This document shows, one piece after another, positions 5,752 through 53,296 of a DNA stretch of 64,000 bases (its first letter is position 1; each line of letters begins with the position of its first letter). The notes under the pieces were generated by a model that saw only the letters and a program-made list of their open reading frames with translations, did no database searches and was not told the DNA's origin. Origin of the DNA: Patescibacteria group bacterium (GTDB lineage Bacteria; Patescibacteriota; Patescibacteriia; UBA9934); assembly GCA_038064675.1 (NCBI GenBank), contig JBBTSM010000003.1, positions 38,663-102,662 of the forward strand, written 5' to 3'. The position numbers and the translations under genes were made by a program.

Positions 5752-7149
5752 TTACCAAACCTCCTTCAGTTTCTGCCCGCTTGGCGTGTCGTCGATGTCA
5801 AAGCTAAGCTTTAACACTTCGTCCCGTAACTCATCGGATTTCTTCCAATCCTTGTTCGATCTTGCCACTTCGCGATCGGTGACCAGCTTCTCGACAGCGC
5901 TCGGAATCGCTAATGGTCGGGCAACAACATCTTCCAGCGCAAGGCCGAGAATTTCGTCCATCGCAAGGAGCGTCGCCGATTTCACTGAACGCTCCATTGA
6001 TACGTGATTGAGTACGCCGTAAAAGATCGCGAGTGCGCCGGGCGTGTCGAGATCGTCGTTAATGTGTTCCATGAACTGCACCATAGATTCCGCATCTGCT
6101 TCGCTCGGCTTCGGCAAATCGCGAACCGCGTTTCGAATATTCCCGAGTGCGATGTGCGACGCCCCAACCGCATCCCACGTGAAGTTCTGCGGCGTTCGAT
6201 AATGTGCGCCGAGGATAAAGAGACGGAAACTCAAGGGATGAATCTTATGCGCCTCCAGATCGGCAACCGTATACGTATTGTTCAACGACTTACTCATCTT
6301 CCCGCCATCAATCTGCAGGAATTCATTATGCATCCAAAAATTCGCTTCAAGACAGTTTCTTGCGGCAAGTGTCTGCGCGATCTCGTTTTCATGATGAACC
6401 GCAATGTGATCGATTCCGCCAGTGTGCACATCGAATGGAACGCCGAGATATTTCTCGCTCATCGCAGAGCATTCAATGTGCCAACCCGGAAACCCAACGC
6501 CCCACGGCGATTCCCACTCCATCTGTCGCTTCTGGGTTGCTGCGTCCGAGCTCGGCGACGGTGAAAACTTCCACAGTGCAAAATCTGACGCATTCTTTTT
6601 GTCTCCAATTGATACGCGAGCGCCACCTTCTTTCTCATCGAGCGACTGCCCGGAAAGCTGGCCGTACGATGAAAGCTTAGACGTATCGAAATACACTCCA
6701 TCCGCAATCGTGTACGTGTAGCCATTCTTCTCGATCTCCTGAATCATCGCGATCTGTTCGGCGATGTGATCAGTTGCCTTCGGGCTGACATGCGGCATGA
6801 GCATGTTGAACCTTTTCATGTCCTCAAAGTAGAGCGCCGTATATTTCGCTGCGATATCCCACGCACTCTCCCCGGTTTTCTCACTCATCATCTGCAGCTT
6901 CTCCGCACCACCGTCAAGATCGCCAACCAAATGTCCAACGTCGGTAATATTAATGGCCTGCGTTACCGCATAGTCGTTCGCCTCAAACATTCTGCGCAGC
7001 GTATCCGCCATGAGGAACGCACGAAAGTTTCCGATGTGTCCACGACCGTAGACCGTAAGACCGCAGCTGTAGATTCCCACTTTTCCCGGCACCAATGGCG
7101 CAAAGGCCTGTTTTTTTCGCCCAAGCGTATTGAAAAGATGAATCGCCAT
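5752..7149 (-). CDS. cysS: cysteine--tRNA ligase
   Basis: HIGN(F) class I motif region, KMSKS motif (KMSKSLNN), length 465 aa. Confidence 0.95.
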   Translation of the reverse strand: MAIHLFNTLGRKKQAFAPLVPGKVGIYSCGLTVYGRGHIGNFRAFLMADTLRRMFEANDYAVTQAINITDVGHLVGDLDGGAEKLQMMSEKTGESAWDIAAKYTALYFEDMKRFNMLMPHVSPKATDHIAEQIAMIQEIEKNGYTYTIADGVYFDTSKLSSYGQLSGQSLDEKEGGARVSIGDKKNASDFALWKFSPSPSSDAATQKRQMEWESPWGVGFPGWHIECSAMSEKYLGVPFDVHTGGIDHIAVHHENEIAQTLAARNCLEANFWMHNEFLQIDGGKMSKSLNNTYTVADLEAHKIHPLSFRLFILGAHYRTPQNFTWDAVGASHIALGNIRNAVRDLPKPSEADAESMVQFMEHINDDLDTPGALAIFYGVLNHVSMERSVKSATLLAMDEILGLALEDVVARPLAIPSAVEKLVTDREVARSNKDWKKSDELRDEVLKLSFDIDDTPSGQKLKEVW

Positions 7150-8581: not shown

Positions 8582-9037
8582 TTACCAAATCTTCCACCAC
8601 GGCTTCTTTGCTTGTCCGTCGCTCATTTCGCTCAAGGGTAATCCCGAGCGCTCACTTCGCTCGTTCTCCTGCTCCGGCTCCACAAACTTCACCCACCCGT
8701 CAATTCGGCGCATCTCCTTCTCGATGGTTGGCCCTTCATATTCACCGCTGTGCATGTGATTCGATCCGTACGACGGCTTCTTTTGGTCCAGGTGGAGGCT
8801 AAAGGTCACTTCGTCATTCTTATGATCAACATACAAATGGAATCGCGGATAAAACTCCCCCGTCAACCGCAACACAAAACTGCTTTCCCCACTCTGCGGA
8901 TCCGTAAACGCCGAATACCCCGCCTTCCGCAGAACGGCCAACGGGCTGTGCATGACGGCTTTGTCGTAGGTAACTTTCATAATCCAGAAATCAATCGATC
9001 CTAATGGCGCATCCGCTTGTTCCCGTATATTTACCAA
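8582..9037 (-). CDS. hypothetical protein
   Basis: 151-aa ORF. It overlaps the 5' end of the downstream HNH gene by 47 nt, so the true start is possibly an internal Met. Confidence 0.4.
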   Translation of the reverse strand: MVNIREQADAPLGSIDFWIMKVTYDKAVMHSPLAVLRKAGYSAFTDPQSGESSFVLRLTGEFYPRFHLYVDHKNDEVTFSLHLDQKKPSYGSNHMHSGEYEGPTIEKEMRRIDGWVKFVEPEQENERSERSGLPLSEMSDGQAKKPWWKIW

Positions 9038-9734
9038 TAATAATGCCTACAGAACAAACGAATTGGCAATCGGTCATTCGAATATTATTCTCATCGACCC
9101 TCATCTCATTATCATGGATCGAGACTGAATGTTCTTTGAATCTCAAAGTACCACGATCAATCACGAGTTTGTTTGGAACAACAAAACGCATCCGAATGAG
9201 AAACTTTCCGCGCCCCGCTCTCAGTGTAAGTTGATTAGTTTGAAATTCGATGTCCCATGGATCCATTGAATACACAAGTTCATTCTCACGAATCGCCAAT
9301 ATTAGCTCACCCTTCTCGTTAAAAAGCCTAACATAAAGCAAAAGAGTTTCACCATCTGACTTGTAGCCGATGATAGGCTGATCTTCAATGATTAAAGGAA
9401 CCTGTGTTTGAAAAATATTTCCACCCAGCACGGTCACCAAATTACCACCGGCGTAATTCAAAAAGTAAGGCTTGCTAATTCCTTTCTGAAGATTGTAAGG
9501 ATTGGAGTTAGCGTTCCTTACAGCATTTCGCGATAGAAGCTTATTCGTAACCTGCTTATGATGAGAGTCGCATAGAAGAGTAATATCTTCCTCGCGATGT
9601 TCTTTGGTATTTGCCCAACCGTTCATGTGATCGTATTCGTAAAGCGGAATGCCACAAATAACGCATCCAAAGCCACATCGCGTCCTGATATTACGAAGCA
9701 TTGCATCAGGTATTTTTGGGCGAGATTCTTTCAT
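8991..9734 (-). CDS. HNH endonuclease domain protein with uncharacterised C-terminal domain
   Basis: N-terminal CGFGCVICG...YEYDHMNGWANTKEH...LLCDSHHKQ (C-x2-C ... H ... C ... HH) HNH motif. About 150 aa follow with no recognisable motif. Confidence 0.6.
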   Translation of the reverse strand: MKESRPKIPDAMLRNIRTRCGFGCVICGIPLYEYDHMNGWANTKEHREEDITLLCDSHHKQVTNKLLSRNAVRNANSNPYNLQKGISKPYFLNYAGGNLVTVLGGNIFQTQVPLIIEDQPIIGYKSDGETLLLYVRLFNEKGELILAIRENELVYSMDPWDIEFQTNQLTLRAGRGKFLIRMRFVVPNKLVIDRGTLRFKEHSVSIHDNEMRVDENNIRMTDCQFVCSVGIIIGKYTGTSGCAIRID

Positions 9735-9776: not shown

Positions 9777-9852
9777 TGGTCGGACTAGCGGGGCTCGAAC
9801 CCACGACCTCGTCGTCCCGAACGACGCGCGCTACCAACTGCGCTATAGTCCG
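9777..9852 (-). tRNA. tRNA-Pro (anticodon CGG)
   Basis: Hand-folded cloverleaf. Acceptor CGGACUA/UAGUCCG with C1:G72, D-stem GCGC, anticodon stem CGUCG/CGACG with loop UUCGGGA, T-arm GUGGG-UUCGAGC-CCCGC, discriminator A and CCA encoded. Confidence 0.85.
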
Positions 9853-10096: not shown

Positions 10097-10428
10097 TTAT
10101 TCTGAGGTTTCTTCACCGCCCTGAAACCTTTCGTTATAATGATTCATGACTTCGTCAATAGAAGCGTCCCAAGGCATGACCGTAACAACAGTTTCACTAT
10201 TGAGAGAGACATTTATCGGTTGTCCCACCCTCTGAACAATGGCGAAAACTTTTACCACACAGTCTCGAACATCCTCACCACCTCGAGCGGTATATACATT
10301 ATCAACAATACCCTCTGCCGAACTCGAATAATTTAATGGCCCACGATAAATTTTCAATGGCACTTTTTCCACTTTCGGAGGAACGGGAGACTCAAACGGG
10401 TTAGACATATCCGTAAGTCTACATGACA
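10097..10428 (-). CDS. hypothetical small protein
   Basis: C-terminal part of the 10097..10651 ORF. The upstream portion overlaps a tRNA gene and is rejected. Candidate starts are at 10428 or 10407. Confidence 0.3.
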
Positions 10429-10491
10429 TATCCCGGAGAGTGTCTTGTTGGTTGTGGAAAAGCATCCTACACTTCTCCCGACATTCTTCTC

Positions 10492-10596
10492 CGAGCCGTA
10501 GCGCAGTGGTAGCGCGCTTGCATGGCGCTCGACGAGCTGAGCTAAGCGAGGAGAGTGTGCAAGAGGTCGTGGGTTCAACCCCCATCGGCTCGACCA
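10492..10596 (+). tRNA. aberrant 105-nt tRNA gene with ~30-nt insertion in the anticodon loop region (intron-like); identity undetermined
   Basis: Canonical acceptor stem CGAGCCG/CGGCUCG (C1:G72), D-arm GCGC-AGUGGUA-GCGC, T-arm GUGGG-UUCAACC-CCCAU, discriminator A and CCA encoded. The anticodon stem halves CUUGC (10517-21) and GCAAG (10559-63) are separated by 37 nt instead of 7. Confidence 0.5.
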
Positions 10597-10636
10597 GAAC
10601 GTCACTCTTCATGAGTGATTTTTTGTTTGTTTCTTT

Positions 10637-10665
10637 TTGACATTTCCTCATTTCTCTGCTATATT
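10637..10665 (+). promoter_or_regulatory. sigma70-like promoter (TTGACA-N17-TATATT)
   Basis: Consensus -35 TTGACA at 10637-10642, a 17-nt spacer and -10 TATATT at 10660-10665, upstream of the small ORF at 10724. Confidence 0.55.
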
Positions 10666-10723
10666 CTTCGGTCGAGTGGGAGCGTTCCGCTACCCCTCAC
10701 AGCCCCACAAGGAGGGGGTTCAC

Positions 10724-10924
10724 ATGTTGACGACGATCTTGAATTACGCCATGGAAGGCTGCTTCGGACTTACGACGTTTTTCCTCTGGCTCCAGGCGGC
10801 CATCCAGTGGTCCCGCGAGGAGCAGATCGGAGCCCTGAAGAAGGGCTGCGTCGTGGCCATGCCCGCCTCCCTCCTGATCTACATCATCTTCGACCTCGGG
10901 GCGCACTACGGCTCCGTCAACTAG
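10724..10924 (+). CDS. small hydrophobic protein (66 aa)
   Basis: ATG preceded by a strong SD AAGGAGGGGG at 7-nt spacing. The product MLTTILNYAMEGCFGLTTFFLWLQ... is hydrophobic. A consensus promoter lies upstream. Confidence 0.45.
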   Translation: MLTTILNYAMEGCFGLTTFFLWLQAAIQWSREEQIGALKKGCVVAMPASLLIYIIFDLGAHYGSVN

Positions 10925-19093: not shown

Positions 19094-21370
<2,277 letters not shown>

Positions 21371-24342: not shown

Positions 24343-24361
24343 GGTGTTAAAGCTTAGCTTT
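24343..24361. repeat. REP-like palindromic repeat copy 1 (gtgttaaagcttagctttg)
   Basis: Contains the AAAGCT-t-AGCTTT palindrome. Three copies flank the RAYT-like gene. Confidence 0.7.
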
Positions 24362-24403
24362 GACACCGTAACACTGATCAAATCTCCCAAATAATTTGAA
24401 GAT

Positions 24404-25042
24404 TCAAATGTTAAAGCTTAGCTTTGCCATATCACGATGTGGGATCCAGGATCTCACAAATTCTAGATACTCTTCTGGCGGTATGAGTGATGCCAAAAAT
24501 TCTGGATGAATAATGGGATCGATTGTTTTACCGATGTAATGACGAAAACTTGACCATGGATACTCAAGAAGCTTTTCAAAACGACCTTCGCTATCAGCGA
24601 ACAGGTCGAGTTGATTCAGATGAACGTAACGTGTCGAATGAAGAAACTGACGATCGTCCTCGATCAAAACAGACTTATACGATGATTCGAATAAGGATCC
24701 GGTCCGATCGTATTTTCGATTAAAGTACTTCGTGTACCCCGTACCAAGTCGCTGCATAAACCTCGCAACACCATCATCAGCGATCTGTTTCACGATAAAG
24801 TGAACGTGATTATTCATCAATGTGTAACAAATGATCTCGACCAAAGGAGTCGTCGAACGTAGCGGATGACTGCCGTCTTCTCCGAGCTCAGGCTTCCTTG
24901 CGATCACTTCATCGTCGTTGAATAGAATGCAACCTCGAAGAAATCGACGTCGATCCTCATCACACAGAAAGGTATCCCGCCGATCAACTCCACGGTTGTA
25001 AATATGGTAATAACAGCCCGCTACCATCGGAGTAACACGCAT
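24404..25042 (-). CDS. IS200/IS605-like Y1 HuH transposase family protein (REP-associated tyrosine transposase-like)
   Basis: HuH motif NHVHFIV, downstream GTGYTKYFN (candidate catalytic Tyr region), 212 aa, bracketed by REP-like palindromes. Confidence 0.7.
   Translation of the reverse strand: MRVTPMVAGCYYHIYNRGVDRRDTFLCDEDRRRFLRGCILFNDDEVIARKPELGEDGSHPLRSTTPLVEIICYTLMNNHVHFIVKQIADDGVARFMQRLGTGYTKYFNRKYDRTGSLFESSYKSVLIEDDRQFLHSTRYVHLNQLDLFADSEGRFEKLLEYPWSSFRHYIGKTIDPIIHPEFLASLIPPEEYLEFVRSWIPHRDMAKLSFNI
24409..24426. repeat. REP-like repeat copy 2
   Basis: tgttaaagcttagctttg. Confidence 0.7.
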
Positions 25043-25066: not shown

Positions 25067-25085
25067 GTGTTAAAGCTTAGCTTTG
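25067..25085. repeat. REP-like repeat copy 3
   Basis: gtgttaaagcttagctttg, immediately upstream of the RAYT-like gene start. Confidence 0.7.
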
Positions 25086-25504
25086 TTTTTCACCCCATCC
25101 AACGTTTCATTCACCAGCGCGTCGGCGGCAGTATTTTGTTCGCGGAACACATGAGAGAATGTCGCTTTCCTGAATTTCGTTCGGAGATTGTGCACCTCAA
25201 GGAACCGCTTAGCGATTTCGGCATTTTTCACACGGTAGATACCGTTAATCTGCTTCACCGCCAGCTCGGAATCGAGGCGAACATCAATTTCCTCATATCC
25301 AAGATCGAGCGCCTTTTGTAAACCAATGATGATACCGGTGTACTCTGCTTGATTGTTCGTATCGATCCCAATGTACTTCGCGGCATCAGCAACGCGCTCG
25401 CCCTGCTCTCCGGCCGCCGATAACACAAAAAGAACTGCGGCGCCAGCAGCAGGCCCCGGATTTCCTCGACTCCCCCCGTCGGCGTACATTCTCACTTTTT
25501 TCAT
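25070..25504 (-). CDS. rnhA: ribonuclease HI
   Basis: YADGGSRGNPGPAAG...QAEYTGII..L...E..VRLDSELAVKQ pattern of RNase H. Start MKKVRMY at 25504 forms an ATGA overlap with the recJ stop. Confidence 0.85.
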   Translation of the reverse strand: MKKVRMYADGGSRGNPGPAAGAAVLFVLSAAGEQGERVADAAKYIGIDTNNQAEYTGIIIGLQKALDLGYEEIDVRLDSELAVKQINGIYRVKNAEIAKRFLEVHNLRTKFRKATFSHVFREQNTAADALVNETLDGVKNKAKL

Positions 25505-32085: not shown

Positions 32086-33240
32086 TTAGCACGAAATCAC
32101 TCCACTCCCAATAAGCTCTTCTCCACGATAAAATGCAATGAATTGCCCAGGTGCGACGGCGCGTTGAGGAGAAGAAAAGTGAACAACAAATGCAACGGAG
32201 AGCGATGGGGTCAGGTCTTTACCTTTTACTTTTTCAATAACACATTCTGCCAATGGCTGCCGGTATCGGATCCTCGCCATGATCGGCTCACCGATCGCAT
32301 GGTCGATTGCGCCAGGAATGGTTTCGCTGATGTTCGTCGCGACAAGATCCGATCGGAACAGTGCCGGATCATCGGCTCCAACGGCAACAATCACTTCGTT
32401 TGTTTCCGGCCTGCGATCAACAACATATAGCGGCGTGCCTCCGCCGATTCCTAATCCCCCACGCTGGCCGATAGTGTAAAACTCGAATCCACGATGCTTG
32501 CCGAGGACTTTCCCCTCAGTCGTCACGATATTGCCGTCATGCGGCGTAATACGAGCCTCAAGAAACTGTTGCATGTCTACTTGACCAACGAAGCAAATGC
32601 CTTGGCTGTCTCTCTTTTGGGCAGTGGGCAAGTGGGCAAGCTGGGCAAGGCGCCGAACCTCGGCCTTCTGCAAGTCACCGATGGGAAAGAGTGATCGCTT
32701 CAACTGATCCTGATTCAGCTGACACAAGAAATAGGTTTGATCTTTATTTTCGTCGAGGCCGACGAGCAAGTGAGCAGAACCTTCCCCCTTACCCCCGCTC
32801 TCCTCGCCCGCCGCAGCTCGTCGAGCGCCTTCGTAAGGAGTGGGAGTGTCATCAACCCTTCGCGCGTAATGGCCAGTCGCAATGAAATCACAGCCGAGCT
32901 TATCGGCTTCCTTCAAAAACAAATCGAACTTCATGTACTTATTGCACAGCACGTCCGGATTCGGTGTTCGTCCGGCTTTGTATTCGTCAATCATGTATTC
33001 GTACACCTTCGATCGGTACTGCTCCTCAAAATCAAATGTATAAAATTTCAATCCCAACTGCCCAGCAACGCGCATTGCATCACGTCGCTCTCGTCGCCAC
33101 TCGCACTCCTCGCCGTCGTCGTTCGTGCTCCAGTTTTTCATGAAGCCACCAATCACCTCGTATCCTTGTTCCAACAACAACACCGCAGCAACGCTGCTGT
33201 CCACGCCGCCAGACATTCCAAGGAGAACGCGCTTCGCCAT
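32086..33240 (-). CDS. mnmA: tRNA 2-thiouridine(34) synthase MnmA
   Basis: PP-loop SGGVDSSVAA, catalytic Cys regions, CDFIATGHYARR. Contains a ~20-aa repeat-derived insertion. Confidence 0.95.
   Translation of the reverse strand: MAKRVLLGMSGGVDSSVAAVLLLEQGYEVIGGFMKNWSTNDDGEECEWRRERRDAMRVAGQLGLKFYTFDFEEQYRSKVYEYMIDEYKAGRTPNPDVLCNKYMKFDLFLKEADKLGCDFIATGHYARRVDDTPTPYEGARRAAAGEESGGKGEGSAHLLVGLDENKDQTYFLCQLNQDQLKRSLFPIGDLQKAEVRRLAQLAHLPTAQKRDSQGICFVGQVDMQQFLEARITPHDGNIVTTEGKVLGKHRGFEFYTIGQRGGLGIGGGTPLYVVDRRPETNEVIVAVGADDPALFRSDLVATNISETIPGAIDHAIGEPIMARIRYRQPLAECVIEKVKGKDLTPSLSVAFVVHFSSPQRAVAPGQFIAFYRGEELIGSGVISC
32781..32846. repeat. degenerate GC-rich palindromic element inserted in-frame in mnmA (encodes ...TPTPYEGARRAAAGEESGGKGEGS...)
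   Basis: cttcccccttacccccgctctcc ... gccTTCGTAAGGAGtgggag. Shares the TTCGTAAGG core with the ligA and uvrB copies. Confidence 0.5.
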
Positions 33241-33345
33241 ACAAAAGTAAAAGGTAAAGACCTGACCCCGTTATTACGTCACGTTACGTCATTAGATATT
33301 CCAAGGAGAACTTTCTTTGGCATACAATGCGTCTATAGTGTACCG

Positions 33346-33443
33346 GAATGCCCAGATCCTGAGCGCATGCGAAGGATCCCGAGTGCGCCCAGATGGAACC
33401 TTCACGCATCTGACAGAGACCCTTCGCATACGCTCAGGGTCTA
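33346..33443. repeat. structured intergenic repeat, family A/B copy 2
   Basis: See 21176..21278. Here the H1 loop cctgagcgcatgcgaagg is complementary to the later ccttcgcatacgctcagg (1 mismatch). Confidence 0.65.
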
Positions 33444-38840: not shown

Positions 38841-38957
38841 TCAACGATTACGCCTTAAGCGAATTGAGCGAGTGAAATACGAATCCGGCTCAGACCATCG
38901 CTCAATTCGCTCGCGCATCGCGCTCGCTCAAGGGTAATCCCGATCGCTCATCGTCAC

Positions 38958-53219: not shown

Positions 53220-53296
53220 ATGGGGGAAAGTAAAAGGTAAAGACCTGACCCCTTAGTTATACCTCGAATAACGAATCGATCAATACGGTTATCCTC

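Follow-up and report, generated by a model that had tools for sequence, protein, structure and literature searches.

The stretch of 64,000 nt analysed here (the window) belongs to a Patescibacteria genome and contains a tRNA-shaped gene of 105 nt whose anticodon loop is occupied by about 30 additional nucleotides. These nucleotides are homologous to a piece of mnmA coding sequence located 22 kb away. The feature is real and looks unusual, and its most likely reading is an ordinary one, namely a disrupted tRNA gene restricted to a single lineage. A short intron not belonging to group I would, if true, be without precedent in bacteria; the evidence points instead to a disabled tRNA, and the view that the insert is a recognisable intron is not supported. 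What is useful here is that the insert can be traced to mnmA and that such a gene may lead to misannotated Patescibacteria tRNA sets. The main features are, in window coordinates:

10492..10596 (+): tRNA-shaped gene of 105 nt with encoded CCA, detected with Rfam RF00005 and ARAGORN -i, identical in five assemblies
10517..10563 (+): anticodon arm, a CUUGC/GCAAG stem enclosing 37 nt, predicted to fold into one long irregular hairpin
10524..10555 (+): insert core, GGCGCTCGACGAGCTG-AGCTAA-GCGAGGAGAG, homologous to mnmA (27/32)
10601..10629 (+): terminator-like hairpin and T run (intrinsic type), starting 5 nt after the CCA
10445..10473 (+): weak promoter-like sequence TTGTTG-17-TACACT, ending 18 nt before C1, read by eye
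9777-9852 (-): tRNA-Pro(CGG) with C1:G72
32086..33240 (-): mnmA, tRNA 2-thiouridine(34) synthase (Pfam tRNA_Me_trans, E 1.8e-75; named MnmA, MEK7632653.1)
32798..32829 (-): presumed source of the insert, the mnmA stretch coding for GARRAAAGEES (aa 138-148), GGCGCTCGACGAGCTG-CGGCGG-GCGAGGAGAG

Anatomy and identity of the tRNA-shaped gene

The Rfam tRNA model RF00005 (gathering score 29) matched window positions 10492-10593 (+) over model positions 1-71 with 55.1 bits (E 9e-11). This score falls between those of two normal neighbouring tRNAs (64.5 and 53.0), notwithstanding the insert, which places 34 nt where the model expects four loop nucleotides. The acceptor stem (CGAGCCG/CGGCUCG) contains C1:G72 and the Watson-Crick pair A3:U70 (A3 at 10494, U70 at 10590) and is followed by A73 and a CCA encoded at 10594-10596. 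The D arm (GCGC-AGUGGUA-GCGC) is succeeded by G26, the variable loop reads AGGUC and the T arm GUGGG-UUCAACC-CCCAU. The body (CGAGCCG...CGGCUCGACCA) is free of decay. Every stem pairs, and U8, A14, G18G19 and G15:C48 are present along with the T loop and the CCA, so that both the cloverleaf and the conserved core of a tRNA are in place. What the 105-nt gene lacks is a 7-nt anticodon loop with a 3-nt anticodon, the halves of the anticodon stem, CUUGC (10517-21) and GCAAG (10559-63), being separated by 37 nt (10522-58). A search for a perfect 5-7-5 hairpin within 10508-10570 yielded none, only four candidates each with 4/5 pairs, which rules out alternative cloverleaf registers and a long variable arm. 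The initial annotation, made from the sequence before this analysis, had described canonically folding acceptor, D and T arms with C1:G72, A73 and CCA, stem halves 37 nt apart and the lack of an alternative 5-7-5 anticodon hairpin, and all of this agrees with the letters and with the Rfam match.

ARAGORN with default settings did not call the gene. With introns allowed, the program reported a 75-nt tRNA with a 30-nt intron and, by default, the identity Thr(AGU), while fixing the intron at position 37/38 gave Ala(GGC). GGU is a further possible join. Two of these anticodons, GGC and GGU, had been proposed before as depending on the splice point, and AGU adds a third. Genes of this type are thus missed by default ARAGORN and receive one of three identities (Thr-AGU, Thr-GGU, Ala-GGC) under intron-aware settings, and misassigned tRNAs can distort estimates of the tRNA complement and of the completeness of Patescibacteria genomes.

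The promoter-like hexamers upstream of the gene score under the threshold of the promoter scanner. A comparable hexamer geometry precedes the neighbouring genes for tRNA-Ser (TTGCGA-17-TACTCT) and tRNA-Pro (TTGAAT-18-TACTAT); judged by eye from the sequence, the odd tRNA may resemble its neighbours in this respect.

The identity of the tRNA is mixed. Its anticodon arm, CTTGC-ATGGC...T-GCAAG-AGGTC, equals the tRNA-Ala(GGC) arm of two distant bacteria (L010, L011) and is thus of the Ala(GGC) type, and the closest match of the spliced form is tRNA-Ala of E. coli, with which it shares 79.7% identity over nt 8-75. The universal alanine determinant G3:U70 is replaced by A3:U70, and the earlier argument that this pair speaks against Ala holds. 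Features of tRNA-Pro are C1:G72 together with A73, both also present in the neighbouring tRNA-Pro(CGG), whose C1:G72 had been pointed out correctly, as well as G37, which is Pro-like and occurs in every reconstruction. The parts outside the anticodon are about 77% identical to tRNA-Pro(CGG) by hand count. ProRS needs a G at position 36 (PMC10404621). The gene has G35, followed at position 36 by C or U in every reconstruction. With A3:U70 and either C36 or U36, no aminoacyl-tRNA synthetase identity set is satisfied, and the gene was probably not a standard decoding tRNA even prior to the insertion. Whichever reconstruction is chosen, it joins C1:G72 and A73 to an anticodon for Ala (xGC) or Thr (xGU), and it misses the cognate identity elements; in these respects it resembles the tRNA-ProX group (tRNA-ProA/ProT/ProN; PMC10404621). 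However, the latter are characterised by A33, A34, A15:A48 and G21 in place of U33, G34, G15:C48 and A21 in the odd tRNA, which moreover belongs to another phylum, has an interrupted loop and is not adjoined by a ProRSx gene (proSx).

Distribution and genomic setting

The source contigs derive from 0.1-µm filtrates of Hainich groundwater. Five independently assembled contigs (L001, L002, L003, L049, L119) agree without a mismatch over up to 460 nt (392 nt for L049), and therefore the insert is real and an assembly artefact can be dismissed. The five assemblies represent one population with zero sequence diversity, due to which neither purifying selection nor decay is measurable. Relatives (flavoprotein 83-88% identical) do not carry the odd tRNA next to their orthologue of the flavoprotein gene. 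When 185,579 species genomes were scanned for this anticodon arm carrying an insert of 22-52 nt, no homologue emerged; the output consisted of two chance hits and two ordinary tRNA-Ala(GGC) genes containing internal duplications. The two duplicated genes lie in metagenome-assembled genomes (L010, 1860-2040 (-), Saprospiraceae; L011, 510-680 (+), Actinomycetes) and contain tandem duplications of 30-40 nt, which are either real disruptions of tRNAs or long-read assembly errors. A scan of JGI metagenomes for the same D and T arms with an excess of 12-42 nt returned 105 loci; all except L049 were archaeal or eukaryal-type intron tRNAs (Ala-UGC, Arg-UCG, Thr-UGU, Met-CAU and others), and L049 was the same population again. 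Viral contigs, phage genomes (BLAST) and searches with the spurious antisense ORFs did not contain a homologue either.

A second aberrant tRNA was detected in one relative (L007, 1524-1600 (+), Logan ERR14949475), where it adjoins the same flavoprotein gene (83% identical). It has an acceptor with G3:U70, the Ala determinant, A73, an encoded CCA and a 6-nt anticodon loop (UUGUCA), with one mismatch in the anticodon stem and another in the T stem; Rfam assigned 46.6 bits, and ARAGORN reported a tRNA-??? with a 2-nt anticodon.

Genes flanking the locus include those for a NAD-dependent DNA ligase, SecA, Mur ligases, UvrAB, Lgt, MnmA and type IV pili. Judged by the names of its nearest database proteins, the window belongs to Patescibacteria and probably to Paceibacteria. 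The odd tRNA itself is placed between a divergent orphan ORF and a 66-codon ORF; upstream there are tRNA-Pro(CGG), tRNA-Ser(GGA) and an HNH-like gene, and a stretch of lower GC content is close by. The neighbouring ORFs are orphans without a Pfam match, proSx is not among them, and a homologue search with the orphan neighbour protein returned nothing useful. The HNH-like gene (8994-9734 (-)), which adjoins the tRNA cluster within the lower-GC stretch (about 0.40-0.44), codes for a protein of 247 aa with an N-terminal HNH-like motif and matches the phage family phrog_6544 (E 1.7e-43), a family of unknown function. The 66-codon ORF directly downstream (10637-10924 (+)) has a GC content of 0.62, lacks a family match and is preceded by a near-consensus promoter-like sequence (TTGACA-17-TATATT, with TG upstream) and a strong ribosome-binding site. 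One public annotation contains a protein of 171 aa that runs antisense over the odd tRNA (10097-10651 (-); P0001; L119 10001-10516). Its N-terminal part stems from translating the tRNA gene and is an artefact, and the remaining ORF of 122 aa has no homologue beyond its own cluster. In 10 kb more of this genome, the only new find was a tRNA-Trp.

Homology with mnmA and the origin of the insert

Between the insert core (10524-10555) and the mnmA coding strand (32829-32798), 27 of 32 positions are equal. The match consists of exact arms of 16 and 10 nt at equal spacing, and only the 6-nt loop of the hairpin differs. In control searches, the best of 2000 shuffled inserts reached 24/32 anywhere in the window, whereas six out of 3000 32-mers taken at random from the window reached at least 27; these six are taken to sit in the dispersed repeats of the window. 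Outside the 32-nt core, the similarity of the flanks was not significant (p about 0.4-0.6). The motif occurred at two loci in 822 kb of sequence, to which this genome contributed about 75 kb and relatives roughly 85 kb, and was not encountered in viral contigs or in 10 further kb of this genome. Read in the mnmA frame, the insert version would code for ARRAELSEES.

In MnmA, the source stretch lies within 21 aa (aa 132-152) that remain unaligned between two matched blocks when the protein is compared with the solved MnmA 9hlv; for three more solved MnmAs, the hit table gave the same block start. This 21-aa stretch (32785-32847 (-)) is of low complexity, TPTPYEGARRAAAGEESGGKG, and its middle is the portion shared with the tRNA insert. 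A related species (L122) with an MnmA 89% identical possesses the same mnmA stretch with identical arms and the loop TAGCGG, while the odd tRNA is missing from its 21-kb locus. Hence the mnmA copy is the older one, and, judged from these comparisons, the tRNA insert would most simply be a derivative of it. The mnmA stretch is predicted to adopt the same hairpin shape, which would explain why the insert looks structured inside the tRNA. In mnmA this hairpin is not more stable than shuffled sequence (z +0.61).

Several other origins were tried. A 10-nt repeat between the start of the insert and the 3′ end of the tRNA (GCTCGACGAG / GCTCGACCAG) might indicate an internal duplication, but the mnmA match covers the same letters and explains them better. 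A reading of the insert's reverse complement as a D arm (TAGCTCAGCT) was discarded, as G18G19 and any continuation are missing. A REP copy mobilised by a RAYT-like gene was likewise rejected, as only an 8-nt core (AGCTAAGC) is common to the insert and the 21-nt REP-like repeats of the window, which was treated as chance.

The window contains other short repeats. The 21-nt palindromic REP-like repeat TGTTAAAGCTTAGCTTTGACA was found at 5796-5816, 24345-24365, 24409-24429 and 25068-25088, and three of its copies flank a Y1/IS200-like (RAYT-like) transposase gene (24404-25042 (-)) that is also present in L122. A repeat of 88 nt (81% identical) is located upstream of ligA (21189-21276) and of mnmA (33355-33442), partly or wholly outside likely coding regions and without an Rfam match; its copies fold as long hairpins (z -5.8 to -7.5 on one or both strands), so that either a MITE-like element or a structured RNA is conceivable. 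Shorter dispersed repeats connect 8628-8654 with 38924-38950 (27 nt, 96%) and 33244-33276 with 53227-53259 (33 nt, 91%). Since these repeats link distant loci, the tRNA/mnmA pair is not alone in sharing a short patch.

It is considered probable, if not strongly so, that an accessory tRNA gene acquired an ectopic copy of mnmA sequence in its loop and thus became a non-decoding tRNA-like RNA or a pseudogene. The starting point would have been a tRNA gene in a variable part of the chromosome with a perfect body and mixed identity, combining a Pro-like top half with an Ala(GGC)-type arm. A patch of 30-32 nt may then have been copied at the DNA level from the hairpin-forming mnmA stretch into the anticodon loop, probably by template switching or ectopic repair seeded by the shared GG(C). 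As the copied stretch is itself an imperfect palindrome, it would stack on the anticodon stem as a long helix, by which the 7-nt loop was presumably lost. Due to the terminator and the weak promoter-like hexamers, the RNA is probably still transcribed, and the intact acceptor/T half makes it probable that its ends are processed. Such an RNA could not decode and would be a tRNA pseudogene or an inert tRNA-like RNA, not an intron-containing tRNA. If so, the locus offers a clean, datable case of a short templated insertion between distant loci of a reduced genome.

The surroundings with orphan ORFs, an HNH-like gene and a lower-GC stretch fit this explanation, as does the decayed tRNA at the same flavoprotein gene in L007. 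Together with the mixed Pro/Ala-like identity, the aberrant L007 tRNA suggests that variable regions of these genomes gather non-canonical tRNAs. Like tRNA pseudogenes of bacterial accessory regions, the gene violates the rules for the anticodon loop and for identity, lies in a variable region and is restricted to one lineage. Unlike them, it has an undecayed body and is interrupted by a single structured patch of 30 nt that can be traced to mnmA of the same genome. The undecayed body, the Rfam score between those of the two neighbours and the terminator directly after the gene count against the pseudogene reading. Furthermore, the central 6 nt of the insert are wholly unlike mnmA while the arms are exact. 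This is the pattern of a conserved hairpin with a free loop and would not be predicted by simple copying, unless the source was another mnmA allele.

The same pattern, arms kept and loop differing between the tRNA copy and two mnmA versions, would also be expected of a functional, non-decoding tRNA-like RNA whose arm serves as a binding site or decoy. Its intact acceptor/T/D core would allow processing and perhaps charging or binding by proteins that handle tRNAs, and the binding site or decoy would be the long arm with its tandem G.A pairs. The target of such a decoy may be an anticodon nuclease or a factor that also binds the mnmA mRNA hairpin. Pseudo-tRNAs with regulatory roles exist in Bacillus cereus, and the pristine cloverleaf with its tertiary-interaction nucleotides, the gene's own terminator and promoter-like hexamers and the predicted coaxial lengthening of the anticodon stem by the insert are in line with a function. 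On the other hand, the gene occurs in one population only, without an orthologue in any search, and a partner gene is not evident nearby. The RNA carries a sense copy of mnmA and cannot pair with the mnmA mRNA, and the mnmA hairpin itself is no more stable than its shuffled versions. A functional RNA is therefore possible but unlikely.

It is also conceivable that mnmA (in frame, at a surface loop) and the tRNA loop each acquired the 32-nt hairpin separately as a small mobile palindrome, in which case the tRNA insert would not have been copied from mnmA. Measured against the canonical genes, the shared sequence falls within an insertion in both hosts (in the tRNA loop, and in the 21 aa of MnmA unaligned to the solved protein), the arms are exact and the loop varies across all three versions, and the genome contains other short palindromic repeats and a Y1/RAYT-like transposase. 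Such an element would resemble the palindromic elements of Rickettsia, which are found in protein and RNA genes alike, measure about 100-150 nt and are present in many copies. The likeness concerns a palindrome situated in frame in a protein gene and inside a structural RNA gene; the core of 32 nt and the two copies known set the present case apart. The restriction to two loci in 822 kb, with none in the viral contigs or the further 10 kb, makes mobility quite improbable, all the more so as a target-site duplication is not visible, the similarity stops at 32 nt and the REP-like repeats beside the RAYT gene are of different sequence.

The intron question

The predicted minimum-energy fold presents the insert as a coaxial extension of the anticodon stem. 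It comprises an AUG bulge (3 nt, 5′ strand), a GCGCUC/GAGUGU helix, two tandem G.A steps and a GAGCUA loop, with an energy of -19.7 kcal/mol (z -2.66) for the anticodon arm. An intron of the archaeal type should form a bulge-helix-bulge (BHB) motif, hBHBh', in which a 4-bp helix lies between two 3-nt bulges, one on each strand, and cutting restores the 7-nt loop. An exhaustive scan in both arrangements did not reveal a motif compatible with a 7-nt loop or a mature tRNA. In the canonical 37/38 register, one of four central pairs is formed (hand pairing), the 3′ junction is inside a helix instead of a bulge, and the sole 3-nt bulge is on the wrong (5′) strand. When 73 distinct intron-bearing tRNAs were scored identically, the odd tRNA departed furthest from the canonical geometry, and its best-scoring register (k=1; 4 central, 0 outer and 0 inner pairs) is irrelevant. 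The scoring is an imperfect control, as it recovered the full motif at 37/38 in nine tRNAs and, by a looser criterion, in 12/73; the clear archaeal examples from the metagenome scan do carry the full motif.

The insert shares with archaeal and eukaryal BHB introns its length (13-41 nt in the 72 other distinct intron tRNAs from metagenomes), its site in the anticodon loop and the partial pairing of anticodon-loop letters with the insert. It differs from them in lacking hBHBh', the bulge on the 5′ strand at the anticodon stem and the helical 3′ junction being a mirror arrangement, as well as in its bacterial host, its missing conservation and the lack of an endonuclease among about 38 window ORFs. 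Bacterial BHB introns have not been reported (PMC13011429). Since neither arrangement of bulges fits and the gene also fails in comparison with the other 72 tRNAs, an archaeal BHB intron was rejected.

Patescibacteria tRNAs are unusually rich in introns, all described ones belonging to group I (PMC13011429). These are self-splicing ribozymes with lengths of more than 200 nt in the supplementary examples of that study (Nakagawa et al. 2026, PMC13011429). The odd tRNA has in common with them the phylum, the anticodon loop as target, the trouble caused to standard tRNA finders and boundaries that are ambiguous by 1-2 nt and alter the called anticodon; unlike the supplementary examples, it has an insert of 30 nt without a catalytic core and without an Rfam match. 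A group I intron should contain the core P3-P9 and typically exceeds 200 nt. A search of Rfam at E<10 over the gene did not return any other family, neither Intron_gpI nor a ribozyme, and a remnant of a group I intron or a small ribozyme was excluded on account of both the length and this result.

A genuine short intron could be removed by an unknown bacterial route, for instance by endonucleolytic cleavage and subsequent RtcB-type ligation, which would leave a tRNA that combines a Pro-like acceptor with an anticodon for Ala (GGC) or Thr (GGU/AGU). It fits this idea that the insert measures exactly 30 nt in each reconstruction that restores the 7-nt loop, and that the body is intact with an encoded CCA. 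Moreover, tRNA introns are abundant in Patescibacteria, even if those described are of group I (PMC13011429), tRNAs of Lak megaphages contain unexplained introns (PMC6784885), and Ala or Thr anticodons do occur naturally on Pro-acceptor tRNAs (PMC10404621). Yet the insert shows only a 3-nt bulge on the wrong strand and a base-paired 3′ junction in place of a BHB, is shorter than a group I core without matching a ribozyme family, is not conserved and appears to be a recent copy of a coding region, and neither EndA nor RtcB (splicing endonuclease and ligase) was found by Pfam among the about 38 window proteins. Considering also that BHB introns are without a bacterial report (PMC13011429), this explanation is very improbable. 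A more far-reaching outcome, either a new and very small palindromic insertion element of Patescibacteria (in frame in an MnmA loop and in a tRNA anticodon loop) or a true short intron that locks a mistranslating Pro-acceptor tRNA with an Ala or Thr anticodon until its removal, is quite improbable.

Thus the initial annotation was right about the anatomy, a tRNA body with a loop insertion of about 30 nt in a bacterium, and about the insert being too short for group I. Its suggestion of an archaeal-type or other short intron found no support in the search for a BHB fold restoring the 7-nt loop. It is further weakened by the confinement of insert-bearing homologues to one population and by the match of the insert to mnmA.

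Two of the metagenome contigs (L091, L081) contain archaeal-type tRNA-Met(CAU) genes with introns of 37-41 nt and an encoded CCA, which exemplify the canonical pairing between anticodon and intron. Neither passed the strict BHB scoring, and in both the 5′ part of the intron pairs perfectly with the anticodon loop.
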